A stretch of 20,000 nt of DNA, taken from IMG/VR virus record IMGVR_UViG_3300004151_000009; one strand, written 5' to 3'. Position 1 is the first letter of the stretch. Each line of letters begins with the position of its first letter. Source of the DNA: an uncultured virus (IMG/VR IMGVR_UViG_3300004151_000009). Its lineage: Duplodnaviria; Heunggongvirae; Uroviricota; Caudoviricetes. Position numbers and translations under genes: made by a program. The notes under the pieces were generated by a model. It was not told the origin of the DNA. It searched no databases and saw only the letters and a program-made list of their open reading frames with translations. Of the stretch, positions 3,322-6,946 are shown piece by piece.

Positions 3322-3618
3322 ATGGACGCAATCGAAGTTGGGTGCTGGGTGTTTCTTTGTCATTACAATGCTGCCGACGAGACTCATTTAGATAAATACC
3401 CCTCCATGAAGGAGTTTTTCGGGACATGGGGTACTGTGTCCGAAGTGGACCCAAGCGGGGGAGACGTTTACTTCCGGTTAAGAGACTCCACCTTTTGGTT
3501 TCATTCTAGTTGGGTTATTGCTGTACGCGGTGTGCGGGACGCTCCCAAAAGTGTAGGGGGCCACGAGAAGACACAGCACAGGGACATTCGGTTAATCAGA
3601 CTGAGGAGGATAGGATGA
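3322..3618 (+). CDS. SH3/KOW-like protein with C-terminal HRDIRLIRLRR motif (family member 1)
   Basis: Strong RBS; MKEFFG...WFHSSWV core shared with paralogs; shared C-terminal motif. Confidence 0.8.
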   Translation: MDAIEVGCWVFLCHYNAADETHLDKYPSMKEFFGTWGTVSEVDPSGGDVYFRLRDSTFWFHSSWVIAVRGVRDAPKSVGGHEKTQHRDIRLIRLRRIG

Positions 3619-3938
3619 AAGAGTGGGCAGATGTGGAATCTTTGGTGGATGTGGAGATACGCGGGGTGGTCAAGCAGTTTTGGGATATTGGCTATTACAC
3701 GCAGGAAGGGTGTAGTGGTCATTATGGGAAGCAGCCTCCGTACTTGATCTTCCTCCCCAAAATCTTTCGTGAGGATTCTTTGTACGGGGTTATGTATGCC
3801 TTACAGGAAGAGATGAAGTACGGGCTGACTGTTAAGTATCAGGGGAACTCCTTGGTGCTTTCCTGCCCGCCTCGTAGGTACGAAGTCTTCCAACAGGCGT
3901 TGGAGAGATTACTTGCTTGGTTGCGGGACGGAGTTTAG
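3615..3938 (+). CDS. hypothetical protein with D..I...V......G..T...CSGH motif
   Basis: ATGA overlap, GAGGAGG RBS; MKEWADVESLVDVEIRGVV...YTQEGCSGH. Confidence 0.7.
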   Translation: MKEWADVESLVDVEIRGVVKQFWDIGYYTQEGCSGHYGKQPPYLIFLPKIFREDSLYGVMYALQEEMKYGLTVKYQGNSLVLSCPPRRYEVFQQALERLLAWLRDGV

Positions 3939-4012
3939 ATTTTAGGCGGGAAGGCAACCGTAGGTATGCAAACAAAGCAAGAAATAAACTGAAGTTGACT
4001 TCAAAAAACCTC

Positions 4013-4042
4013 TTGACAAAGACTAGATTTTTCGGGTAGGAT
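4013..4042 (+). promoter_or_regulatory. sigma70-type promoter
   Basis: TTGACA-N18-TAGGAT; palindrome TGAAGTTGACTTCA 9 bp upstream. Confidence 0.6.
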
Positions 4043-4075
4043 ACTCGTATCAAATGAGCGGGGAGGGGGATAACT

Positions 4076-4351
4076 ATGGAATTTACCAAAGGGATGCGTG
4101 TTCGTTTGAAGCCTTTAGACTTCTGTGCGGATATCCCCAAAGGGCCTGTCATAGCCTTAGCTATGCACCCTTACTTTGGGAAGGTTGTAACTGTGGACCA
4201 TTTTATAGAAGAGTTAGCGGGTATAGGTTCATTTAAGGTTAAAGAGGATACCCACACATACAACGTCGCTTGGGTTTGTGAGTCCGCACCCCATACCGAA
4301 AGGCCGAAACACCGGGATGTTCGTTTAATTAGAATGCGGGTTGGAGAATAA
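4076..4351 (+). CDS. SH3/KOW-like protein with C-terminal HRDVRLIRMRV motif (member 2)
   Basis: MEFTKGMRVRLK...MHPYFGKVVTV...WV; strong RBS. Confidence 0.85.
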   Translation: MEFTKGMRVRLKPLDFCADIPKGPVIALAMHPYFGKVVTVDHFIEELAGIGSFKVKEDTHTYNVAWVCESAPHTERPKHRDVRLIRMRVGE

Positions 4352-4355
4352 TGCC

Positions 4356-4661
4356 ATGGAACTGAAACCTGGGATGTATATAAGGCTGAAGAGACTGCAA
4401 GACATAGACACCGATCAGGCTCCTGGGGTTGTTCCACACATGCGTGGATATTTTGGAAGAATCTTCATTGTAGACAGTGTAGAACCTATACATAGGTGGG
4501 TGTCCCTCAGAGAATTGCCAGAAGATTCTGATGATGGAGTATGTAGTTGGTCCTTTCACTCAGACTGGATGGAGAGTGTCACAGTTACATACACGGAGCC
4601 GTTCACCAAAGAACGGCATAGGGACATCAGGTTGATTCGTATGCGGGTGGGAGGCCAGTGA
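4356..4661 (+). CDS. SH3/KOW-like protein with C-terminal HRDIRLIRMRV motif (member 3)
   Basis: MELKPGMYIRLK...MRGYFGRIFIV...WSFHSDWM; ATG at 4356 after GGAG. Confidence 0.85.
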   Translation: MELKPGMYIRLKRLQDIDTDQAPGVVPHMRGYFGRIFIVDSVEPIHRWVSLRELPEDSDDGVCSWSFHSDWMESVTVTYTEPFTKERHRDIRLIRMRVGGQ

Positions 4662-5155
4662 TGCAACTCAAGAAAGGGATGCGAGTACAACTCAAAGCAT
4701 GGCTACATGCAGATGACACTAGGCTATCCATCATGGATGCAATGAAGCATTATTTTGGGAGGGTAGTCACCGTAGCGACTGACCCTGATAAGTACGGAGA
4801 CTTCCAAATAGTTGATGGAGACGGCTGGTATTTCACAGAAGATTGGGTAGCGAGGATTTGCAGTAAGACTAATGGGGATGCTCTATGGGACAAGTCTATG
4901 CTGAAAAAGGGAACGAGAGTTAGACTAAAAGCACGCGATCTTTGTAGCAGTATCCATAACGGTCCACACATCCTAGCACAAATGGATGAATGGTTCGGAG
5001 AGATAGTGGTTGTAGAGCAGTATCCAGCTTACGATTCTGGGGTGCGGTTTACGATCAAAGAAAGCCCCTACACCTACCACACATCTTGGGTTGAGAGCAT
5101 CGTTCCCAAGGAGAAGCACACGGACTTGAGACTTATCCGGTTGCGGAGGGTGTGA
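4661..5155 (+). CDS. tandem double SH3/KOW-like protein with a single C-terminal HTDLRLIRLRR motif (member 4)
   Basis: TGATG overlap; two LKKG.RV.LK...FG..V.V...WV repeats. Confidence 0.85.
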   Translation: MQLKKGMRVQLKAWLHADDTRLSIMDAMKHYFGRVVTVATDPDKYGDFQIVDGDGWYFTEDWVARICSKTNGDALWDKSMLKKGTRVRLKARDLCSSIHNGPHILAQMDEWFGEIVVVEQYPAYDSGVRFTIKESPYTYHTSWVESIVPKEKHTDLRLIRLRRV

Positions 5156-5421
5156 TGGAACTGAAAGTCGGGACGGTTGTCAGACTCATGAAGCAGGAGT
5201 GTGCCGAAAAGACATGTGGTCTAACAATATACACACCCATGCACAAGTATTTTGGGACAGACGTAACAATAGCAGACCTGTCGGGGTGCAAAAGCCACTT
5301 CAAGATACGCGGAGATGCTTCAAACCTATGGTATGACGCAAGGTGGATAAAGTCTGTGGGTGCTGCATCTAGGCTGGATTATCATCGGGACATTCGGCTG
5401 ATTCGATTACGGGTCAGGTAG
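5155..5421 (+). CDS. SH3/KOW-like protein with C-terminal HRDIRLIRLRV motif (member 5)
   Basis: TGATG overlap; MELKVGTVVRL...MHKYFGTDVTI...WYDARWI. Confidence 0.85.
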   Translation: MELKVGTVVRLMKQECAEKTCGLTIYTPMHKYFGTDVTIADLSGCKSHFKIRGDASNLWYDARWIKSVGAASRLDYHRDIRLIRLRVR

Positions 5422-5439
5422 CATACCTGGAGGTTTAGT

Positions 5440-5808
5440 ATGGCAAAGACACTGATGTTCAGCGTAACCAAGGATGATGTGGAGTGGGACACGTATCGCG
5501 GGACGGGGCCTGGAGGCCAGCACAGGAACAAGACGGAATCGGCAGTACGTTTAACGCACAGACCTTCCGGGGTGGTAGTACAGAGTCAGAGTGATAGAAG
5601 CCAGCATACGAACAAGCGTGAGTGTATGAAGCAGTTGGCAGCCCACCCGAAATTCAAGGCATGGTGCTTACGTCGCAGCATTGAAATGCGGGAGGGGGAG
5701 ACGTTAGAGCAGAAGGTAGACAAGATGCTCCATCCCGAGAATCTAAAGATCGAGTTGCTGGACGAAACTACACATAAGTGGGGGGCTGGACATGCAGGTG
5801 GGAGATAG
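5440..5808 (+). CDS. stand-alone class I release factor GGQ domain (RF-1 domain, ArfB/PrfH-like peptidyl-tRNA hydrolase)
   Basis: [22 protein letters not shown]...RSQHTNK; GGAGG RBS. Confidence 0.9.
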
Positions 5809-6124
5809 GATCAAGCTGCGCTCTTATGGGGAGATCAAAGCCCTTCCTGGTGTGTACGAGGAGGGGTTCTGTGGTGATGCCAGCAGGCCGTGCTTACTCC
5901 ACCCAGATTGGCATAGGAATGTTGTGATTAAGGATTCTGCACTCCGATGCGGGTGTGATGGTATAACCTCTCACGAGGTTACTTCTGTGGAAGGCCAGTT
6001 TTTCCACATCATGGGGCATTCCTGGACATTCCATGAGGATTGGGTAGTGGGATTGGTGAGGGGTTCAACTACGAGCCAAGTGAGACACAGCGACCTTCGA
6101 TTGATTAGAACACGGAGGCCCTAG
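5792..6124 (+). CDS. SH3-like protein, subfamily B, with C-terminal [11 protein letters not shown] motif (member 6)
   Basis: [18 protein letters not shown]...[10 protein letters not shown]; close paralog of 6482-6946. Confidence 0.8.
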
Positions 6125-6126
6125 AC

Positions 6127-6456
6127 ATGTTAGGGGTGTTCGTTATTTTACGCTCACGCGAGAGCATACAGTCAGACGATGTTCTACTGCATAGTCTGGT
6201 TGGGTATGGTTTTCCAGTGGTACTACAAGAAATGTCTCATAGGGAGCGTGGTGCTTTCGATGCCGTGTTTGATGGTGTGAGCAAGCATCAGGTGTACGCT
6301 ATCAAACATGGGTGTGTCTTTGTAGGTGCCTTCTCCGACATTCCAATACCCGACATCCTGGTGCTTTCTTGGGATATTTTGGGGAAGGAGGCACCCCGAA
6401 AAATACGTTCCAATCACCTGGATATACGTTTGATACGTTGCAGAAAGACGAACTAA
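6127..6456 (+). CDS. divergent protein with C-terminal HLDIRLIRCRK motif (member 7)
   Basis: GGAGG RBS; body only weakly similar to the neighbours but the terminal motif is intact. Confidence 0.75.
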   Translation: MLGVFVILRSRESIQSDDVLLHSLVGYGFPVVLQEMSHRERGAFDAVFDGVSKHQVYAIKHGCVFVGAFSDIPIPDILVLSWDILGKEAPRKIRSNHLDIRLIRCRKTN

Positions 6457-6481
6457 GACACACAAGTAAGGAGATACTTCG

Positions 6482-6946
6482 ATGATTCGTTCAAGGATTT
6501 CATCCATGTGGGAGGCACTAAAAAGCCACTTCTATGTGGCACAACGCCCGGTGCCCGAACAGGCCACCACCATTACTAGGAGTAGCCAAATACGGTTGCG
6601 GGTTGGGGACAGAGTGAAACTGCTATCCTATAAAAGCATAGCTAAGTTGCCCGGAGTCTATACAAAGAGGTTCAATGACCACCTCAATGAGTGCTTGGGT
6701 CATTACTCTTGGGAGACATACAGAGTAATTAAAGGAACGACCCAACTATATGTGTTTGGGGATGGGGGCTTTCATAGGATTGACTCTGTGTCCGAGTCTA
6801 GAAACTGCTTCACTATTGAAGACCATCCTTGGTGGTTTCATAAGGATTGGGTTGCCGAACATCGCCCACGGCAGCAATCTGGAAGCTGCATGAATACCAT
6901 GCGGGTGATCCGTCTATCAAAAAATCGGGAAGGAGAACAGAAGTGA
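6482..6946 (+). CDS. SH3-like protein, subfamily B, with degenerate terminal motif NTMRVIRLSK (member 8)
   Basis: AAGGAG RBS; VGDRVKLLSYKSIAKLPGVY...HPWWFHKDWV. Confidence 0.8.
   Translation: MIRSRISSMWEALKSHFYVAQRPVPEQATTITRSSQIRLRVGDRVKLLSYKSIAKLPGVYTKRFNDHLNECLGHYSWETYRVIKGTTQLYVFGDGGFHRIDSVSESRNCFTIEDHPWWFHKDWVAEHRPRQQSGSCMNTMRVIRLSKNREGEQK

Follow-up and report, generated by a model that had tools for sequence, protein, structure and literature searches.

A conserved C-terminal peptide on an array of small phage proteins as the probable docking motif of a p97-like AAA+ module

Why should a run of small phage proteins with dissimilar bodies end in nearly the same ten residues? This question is raised by a 20,000-nucleotide stretch of DNA from an uncultured virus of the Caudoviricetes (IMG/VR record IMGVR_UViG_3300004151_000009; hereafter the window), in which an array of short genes at positions 3322 to 6946 encodes proteins that share the C-terminal tag H-x-D-[ILV]-R-L-I-R-x-R. 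An earlier note on this DNA had proposed that the tag is a docking or addressing signal on diversified SH3/KOW-like domains and had listed a capsid or scaffold, the ribosome, RNA polymerase and a protease as candidate partners. Our analysis upheld a portable tag on SH3-like bodies but found direct support for none of the listed partners, and the best lead is a module outside the window that consists of an AAA+ ATPase and members of the DUF1257 and DUF2997 families. We conclude that the tag is a real, selected peptide and that it is probably the form taken in this phage by a short linear docking motif, with the core R-x-[ILV]-[RK]-hydrophobic, of this uncharacterised p97-like module.

The window belongs to a 25,290-base contig that is contained with zero mismatches in a 106,007-base IMG/VR record rated 100% complete (G001). 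Seven open reading frames (ORFs) in the window end in the full tag, with the stop codon 2-4 residues past the last conserved arginine, and an eighth has the degenerate tag NTMRVIRLSK 9 residues before its stop; the peptides and histidine codons were as the earlier note had given them. On the plus strand, the members are a 98-residue SH3/REP-like protein (3322..3618) with a 22-residue linker before the tag HRDIRLIRLR (3577-3606); a 91-residue protein (4076..4351; HRDVRLIRMR, 4310-4339); a 101-residue protein (4356..4661; HRDIRLIRMR, 4617-4646); a 164-residue protein (4661..5155) with two tandem bodies and the single tag HTDLRLIRLR (5117-5146); an 88-residue protein (5155..5421; HRDIRLIRLR, 5383-5412); a 110-residue protein of a second body subfamily with an insertion (5792..6124; tag at 6086-6115); a 109-residue protein (6127..6456; HLDIRLIRCR, 6415-6444); and a 154-residue protein of the same subfamily as the 5792 protein (6482..6946; degenerate tag at 6893-6922). 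Two plus-strand genes within the array are without the tag, one for a 107-residue protein of no family (3615..3938) and one for an RF-1-domain (GGQ) protein resembling peptidyl-tRNA hydrolases (5440..5808). A whole-genome scan, proposed in the earlier note, revealed two extra tagged members on the opposite strand, 1.3-1.8 kb before the window starts (HKDIRLIRKR, L001:1283-1597; NTDLRWIRKR, L001:1587-1847), giving ten in all. None of the array members was named by Pfam, PHROGs or NCBIfam, and a strict DNA pattern for HRDIRLIRxR had no IMG/VR matches outside this phage (3 loci on one contig). An unrelated 154-residue protein ending in YRMIRVNN (16071..16535, minus strand) may be a further carrier of the core motif, although this one short match could be due to chance.

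Conservation of the tag can be read directly from these sequences. The pattern H.D[ILV]R[LV]IR.R was observed 8 times in six frames of the 106-kb record, 7 of them in the window, versus 1.4e-4 expected by chance. Pairwise amino-acid identity was 0.72 among 9 tags versus 0.23 among the bodies (0.12-0.39; 28 pairs from 8 of the phage's own proteins), and the linker from the last body tryptophan to the tag ranged from 10 to 22 residues. Codons for the same residue were identical in 91 of 261 comparisons (0.35), matching the 0.31 expected from codon usage, so synonymous sites are saturated and the peptide, not the DNA, is conserved. These results bear out three further statements of the earlier note: that the tag is far better conserved than the bodies, that it follows a variable linker, and that selection acts on the peptide and not on a DNA repeat. 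The residues after the tag (2-7 in array members) vary freely. At several junctions the ribosome-binding site (GGAGG) of the next gene extends over the final two or three codons of the tag; this overlap may account for the trailing RR/VG residues but not for the H-x-D-I-R-L-I-R core.

We predict, from a structural model of one member, that most array bodies are Mind bomb REP-like SH3 barrels. In the 4076 protein, a confident five-strand barrel (residues 1-70) was followed by a coil (71-91; predicted local distance difference test score, 56-61) that contains the tag, which thus lies outside the barrel and is not the integral domain strand that the earlier note had considered as a way for its proposal to fail. 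Among 48,161 solved chains, the best structural matches to this model were two Mind bomb 1 entries (Z 8.5 and 8.2; next row, 6.8), the top one with a root-mean-square deviation of 2.1 Å over 66 residues at 29% identity, and weak Atlas leads for the body agreed with this fold. The Pfam family for Mind bomb REP (PF18346, SH3_15) gave no match at E up to 1 among the window members scanned, and the 6127 body gave no usable Atlas match. Mind bomb REP binds a short peptide (epitope) of Notch ligands, according to the portion of the source at hand (PMC11887331), and by analogy the phage bodies may bind peptides.

Several findings indicate that tag and body are separable, with one tag per chain. G001 also encodes a body without a tag (72123-72374), the body profile misses two tagged proteins (the 6127 protein and a 104-residue upstream member), and a relative's protein, P0135, is a stand-alone, tagged counterpart of the untagged first half of tandem ORF 4661..5155. 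A search of 1.84 billion representatives with the body profile returned 63 matches, comprising 9 own proteins, 5 tagged relatives and 49 proteins without this tag; only the ends of matches longer than 300 residues were inspected, and some long matches are probably spurious. The earlier note had held that a tag routinely lacking from homologs would speak against its proposal. Absence of the tag is literally the rule (49 of 54 non-self matches), but 13 of the 49 end in other common tails (LP-x-x-LF-x-[IL] in 7, IP-x-x-x-x-RM in 4 and REKR-x-L in 2), which points to a detachable, lineage-specific module rather than a missing function. These alternative tails on SH3-like bodies (proteins P0144-P0188: LP-x-x-LF-x-I, IP-x-x-x-x-RM, REKR-x-L) may themselves be tags for other readers. 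An alignment of body plus tag, too variable for a locus search, gave no match in 11 ATPase-bearing records.

The lead to an ATPase module came from other genes of the same phage. When 896 G001 ORFs were scored against the tag, the nine top scores were nine array members, and the next 30 rows, with near-background scores, included the C-termini of a 527-residue ATPase, a 1116-residue protein and a 203-residue protein and the N-terminus of a 161-residue protein. The three C-termini contain the R-x-[ILV]-R core (ITRLIRSN, EVRRIRT and AVRFIRMK, respectively), and the 161-residue protein starts with MRLIRE. The 203-residue gene adjoins DUF1257-like and DUF2997 genes. The DUF2997 gene (13110-13346) matched PF11211 at 46.8 bits versus a cut-off of 24.1; its 117-residue neighbour had no PF06868 (DUF1257) match and was detected by a DUF1257-DUF2997 fusion profile at E 3e-5. 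The ATPase matched PF00004 at residues 275-405 and phrog_8638 over residues 9-510 (E 3e-116), with no NCBIfam model above cut-off. Its 527-residue model, with a disordered tail and no N-domain, matched D1-D2 of Rix7/p97/Cdc48 (E about 1e-22), from which we predict that the ATPase forms a D1-D2 double ring lacking an N-domain; in this single-chain model the ATPase's own tail was not docked. The 1116-residue protein is the terminase large subunit, as judged by Walker motifs and an annotated ortholog in the cultured Rhizobium phage L338C; its identification as a DNA polymerase was rejected. Neither this terminase nor its family had a Pfam or PHROG match, and the ortholog in a second array-bearing record (G002) had no PDB match. 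The terminase gene (G001 83679-87029; L009:7682-11029, minus strand) encodes a product about 400 residues longer than most orthologs, with an insertion that appears intein-like from a weak NCBIfam match.

Of 116 ATPase homologs, 34 had a tail of the form x-R-x-[ILV]-[RK]-[ILVMF] within their last 22 residues, among them 29 of the 35 closest, and a relaxed form, counted without a shuffle control, was present in 87. These tails follow a variable linker, and their commonest form is RNLRV. A 94%-identical ATPase likewise ends in RLIR, and many distant homologs end in R-[RK]-[IL]-A-A; a search of IMG/VR with the single ATPase matched only itself. In phages L338C, HJ05, SM1 and RcTiptonus, the ATPase, an approximately 200-residue gene with an Arg-rich tail, DUF1257 and DUF2997 are adjacent in this order, with one additional gene in SM1 after the approximately 200-residue gene and before DUF1257. 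The ATPase is the sole module gene present in every record with tags.

Two related phages with the ATPase also have arrays of their own. In G002, whose ATPase is 55% identical to that of G001 and has the tail GRAIRV, 8 of 544 ORFs end in R-x-[LIV]-R-[LIVM], all within one 6.3-kb cluster. The G002 tag is a C-terminal RRLRL, and the bodies are mostly unrelated to those of G001, with just one weak profile match. Judged by the G001 gene order, the DUF1257 and DUF2997 genes of G002 are expected beyond the contig end. In L338C, R-x-[VI]-[RK]-[LI]-[DEA] occurs in the first 12 residues of 8 ORFs as an N-terminal R-x-V-R-L-D tag, and the tagged bodies have no BLAST similarity to one another. The 16 matches to this motif in 876 L338C ORFs consist of these 8, 3 more near the start (one being the portal), 1 C-terminal and 4 internal. 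Six of the carriers, in the stretch examined, are annotated hypothetical genes, four of them consecutive.

Across genomes, the C-terminal motif was found in 40 of 1448 genes in 15 ATPase-bearing records versus 4 of 530 in four related phages that lack this ATPase and carry just a short AAA domain (p=0.003), and the enrichment persisted without G001 (p=0.014). The G001 tag scored best, tied with one other, on the tail of its own ATPase among 36 tails compared. We also observed matching variants on ATPases and their neighbours: RVIRR at the ends of neighbours in L022, RKIE[LF] in L023 (DUF3150), and RV[IM]RF in Clostridia and R[RQ]IIP in L086, with the ATPase tail RV[IM]RF or RRIIP reappearing at the starts of neighbours in Clostridia operons. 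The Clostridia operon (L073, L075, L076, L080, L086 and L098) consists of the ATPase, a DUF1257-DUF2997 fusion, a radical-SAM-like gene and neighbours that begin with the ATPase tail motif.

A number of observations weigh against assigning the tag to this module. Some 35 kb separate the G001 ATPase gene (89.0-90.6 kb) from the array, and some 75 kb separate it from the DUF1257 and DUF2997 genes (13.1-13.7 kb). The core match spans only 4-5 residues, and the ATPase tail is without the H-x-D half of the tag. Homology of the G001 203-residue gene to the approximately 200-residue module genes of cultured phages was not established, and DUF1257 and DUF2997 were not found in the complete Corndog genome nor in six incomplete records. 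The C-terminal pattern was chosen after the tags were known and not fixed beforehand, and 4 of its 40 matches are the ATPases themselves. Without both G001 and G002 the enrichment fell to 19 of 1159 versus 4 of 530 (p=0.11), so that the excess rests mainly on G001, G002 and L338C, with none in SM1 (0/136), Corndog (0/103), G008 (0/135), G012 (0/55) and G011 (1/129). No array was seen in G010, in four fragments or in a 48-kb contig from a Desulfovibrio bin, each of which had 1-2 C-terminal matches. In the four arrays whose definition did not draw on the ATPase (G001, G002, L338C and G008), the own ATPase tail ranked 1, 6, 20 and 28 of 36, other covarying cases having been picked by eye; a rank of 26 for G011 was excluded as an artefact of a 6-mer that overruns the tail end. 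The G008 tag RQI[VM] matches its own terminase and not its own ATPase, and a fold in common with REP demonstrates no function for the bodies. Separately, in G008 two small proteins and the terminase have an R-Q-I-[VM]-[IC] tail that the ATPase is without (L063:8494-9490, L062:3824-7147). A complex prediction for DUF1257, DUF2997 and the 30-residue tail of the 3322 protein gave no answer (score of 0.02 against a mark of 0.32) and counts neither way.

Taking these findings together, we consider it reasonably likely that the tag is the docking motif of the p97-like ATPase module and that the array proteins are adaptors with a variable binder and a constant tail. We infer that the tag peptide would be bound at a single site, for which DUF1257/DUF2997 or, in trans, the ATPase ring is the most plausible location. 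Each array protein would act as an adaptor: early in infection its variable body would hold a target, probably a protein of the host, and its constant tail would bring that target to the ATPase to be unfolded or disassembled. Under the same model, the machine could instead act on the tagged proteins themselves as substrates, or they could compete for its site. The array is downstream of two strong sigma70-like, host-type promoters, suggesting early transcription. Both were found by consensus scan on the plus strand: TTGACA-17-TAGAAT (3267..3295; 11/12 matches), which heads the first tagged gene after a terminator-like hairpin (3221-3256), and TTGACA-18-TAGGAT (4013..4042), which heads the main run of tagged genes. 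A broader proposal, which we regard as possible but would not expect to hold, is that of a ubiquitin-free targeting platform, in which fast-evolving Mind bomb-like domains with the docking tail of the motor would bring a p97-like unfoldase to selected proteins of the host, for example defence or regulatory complexes, and the same tail would route the terminase and portal through the machine.

The alternative that survives best, although we judge it unlikely, is a head or packaging address, in which the portal, the small terminase or the inner face of the capsid would read the motif and load the small proteins into the prohead or dock them there, with the ATPase servicing packaging. By-eye comparison showed an Arg-x-hydrophobic tail on the terminase orthologs of 8 of 9 ATPase-bearing phages and such a motif at the start of the portal in 3 of 5 (L338C, HJ05 and RcTiptonus), and the G001 portal gene directly adjoins the 203-residue, DUF1257 and DUF2997 genes. 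RLIR also resembles the capsid-binding RIIK, and diverse bodies with one conserved tag form the pattern of T4 internal proteins, as far as the available parts of the two papers describe them (PMC5644958; PMC3012670). However, the motif is missing from the C-termini of the G001 scaffold-like protein, capsid protein and protease, the portal is without a clear one, and the model shows low-confidence coil and no helix before the tag. Among the four control phages, which have orthologous portals and terminases, two lack such tails and two are borderline. Furthermore, the motif marks ATPase neighbours in Clostridia operons whose called genes included no apparent head gene, no family scan having been made, and the host-type promoters before the array suggest early expression. 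Docking to the module and a packaging role can merge if the ATPase remodels the packaging machine.

We think it rather improbable that a host factor reads the tag, for instance as a degron for a host AAA+ protease that sets the lifetime of early proteins, the terminase and the ATPase. Basic-hydrophobic termini can act as ClpX signals, the R-[RK]-[IL]-A-A ends of many distant ATPase homologs resemble C-terminal signals of this kind, the motif occurs at either terminus, and lineage variants could track the host. Yet the enrichment tracks the ATPase and not kinship, given the 4 of 530 genes in related phages without it, a ten-residue consensus with H and D is more specific than known degrons, and the residues after the tag vary freely.

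Far less probable is a basic tail that binds the ribosome or nucleic acid and acts with the RF-1-domain gene. ArfB has a basic tail, and the RF-1-domain gene, itself without one, lies among the tagged genes in a phage that also encodes RtcB, RNA ligase and RlaP. However, RF-1 was present in only 1 of 5 module phages searched and absent from the array-bearing G002 (80% complete) and L338C, the net charge of the tagged proteins spans -2 to +10, and the fixed H, D, I and L positions of the tag favour a protein pocket. As an observation in its own right, the RF-1-domain gene (5440-5808), RtcB, RNA ligase and RlaP form a translation-rescue and RNA-repair set. That the tag has no function, being left over from gene duplication or arising only because ribosome-binding sites overlap it, is scarcely credible and largely refuted: most bodies are paralogous and tag ends do overlap GGAGG sites, but synonymous sites are saturated in a peptide three times as conserved as the bodies, two tagged bodies are unmatched by the body profile, and five proteins of relatives retain the tag.

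By gene content, G001 looks like a long-tailed phage; a family scan detected tape measure, tail tube, capsid, XkdF protease, PolA, ribonucleotide reductase and integrase genes, and the protease shares approximately 40% identity with its counterparts in phages of roughly 80-110 kb, among them L338C. Gene calling was crude, and several tagged genes and the G001 portal were missed in separate passes. The gene order is unusual in that the portal (14830-16755) is far from the head genes, between PolA and the DUF1257 and DUF2997 genes, and the tail-tube gene (44464-45408) sits between the scaffold-like and capsid genes. A weak lead to a sulfate-reducer host comes from L070, a phage-like contig binned with Desulfovibrio, whose ATPase shares 55% identity with that of G001. 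We also observed two divergent promoters with identical hexamers (TTGACA-16-TATATT; listed window sites 1839-1947, 1982-2013, 3989-4020 and 7740-7771) and, immediately 5' of several promoters at these sites, a repeated element, (C)TGAAnTnnACTTCAAAAA, that is possibly an operator or UP element. Window positions 8113-8335, a candidate origin or regulatory site, lie between convergent gene blocks, where the GC skew switches sign; they contain three ACTAG[GT]CTTTATT repeats at 50-54-base spacing and a perfect inverted repeat of 20 bases (8274-8335). Other genes include an ArdA antirestriction protein (18932-19543, minus strand) and a response-regulator plus PAS protein within the lysis gene block (L006:5793-6668, minus strand).

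These findings tie many hypothetical small phage genes to one machine and provide a handle on a widespread AAA+ module. If the array proteins are adaptors, phages would have a modular, ubiquitin-independent means of aiming an unfoldase at host targets, and the tag would be usable as a portable tool. If the broader targeting platform is correct, a ten-residue peptide would suffice to send any protein to a bacterial p97-like motor, and the Ycf46/DUF1257/DUF2997 set would gain its first function. With the whole module and at least eight tagged genes in a cultured phage, L338C, whose host is harmless, the question is testable now. The locus contributes an uncomplicated set of tagged paralogs with a Mind bomb-like body and natural pairs with and without the tag, complemented by the N-terminal array of a cultured phage and by related controls that lack the ATPase.

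Among known systems, the closest in composition is the Ycf46/DUF1257/DUF2997 set, in which we take Ycf46 to be the AAA+ ATPase and Ycf35 the DUF1257 protein and which includes DUF3150 on some elements. Homologs of the phage ATPase are named 'SpoVK/Ycf46/Vps4 family' by JGI, and the likeness extends to a D1-D2 ATPase of about 520 residues, DUF2997 and a DUF1257-like gene, whereas the genes are split across G001 and adjacent in four cultured relatives. Titles and abstract starts yielded no function, tail motif or tagged client array for this set and no description of the tag motif, in a literature search that largely excluded subscription journals and supplements.

The capsid targeting sequence of T4 is N-terminal and is cleaved in the head, in contrast to the phage tag, which is C-terminal in all ten members, N-terminal in L338C and also found on the ATPase and terminase. 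What the two have in common, as far as the T4 report available in part describes it, is a cluster of highly diverse small proteins with one short conserved peptide (PMC3012670). In the section at hand of another study, the RIIK helix-and-hook of the phage 80alpha scaffold is copied by SaPI1 CpmB to reach the same site and resembles the tag as an R-hydrophobic-hydrophobic-basic motif near the C-terminus (PMC5644958). Unlike that scaffold, the 349-residue scaffold-like protein of G001, so labelled by its position after the protease, ends in ALFGNVR, and that of G002 ends in VLGLGR. The segment before the phage tag is a low-confidence coil in the single-chain model, with no amphipathic helix, and could fold on binding.

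The likeness to p97/Cdc48 is one of design. Its cofactors carry VIM, VBM and SHP motifs, and the p97 C-terminal tail is bound by PUB/PUL domains, according to the accessible text of one article (PMC5389986), so that in both systems short Arg-rich linear motifs would link unrelated proteins to a double-ring AAA+ ATPase and a disordered ATPase tail would serve as a docking motif. By-eye comparison with the consensus sequences in that text (Rx2h3AAx2Rh, EhRRRRLxhh and SHP) showed that the tags do not conform to them, and the tag is predicted to be coil whereas VIM and VBM are helical. The phage ATPase also differs in being without an N-domain, its best matches being N-terminally deleted Rix7, and no ubiquitin system was seen in the G001 family scan. 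The array bodies are comparable in predicted fold to Mind bomb REP (SH3_15), but they occur outside any E3 ligase, as stand-alone phage mini-proteins with a docking tail.

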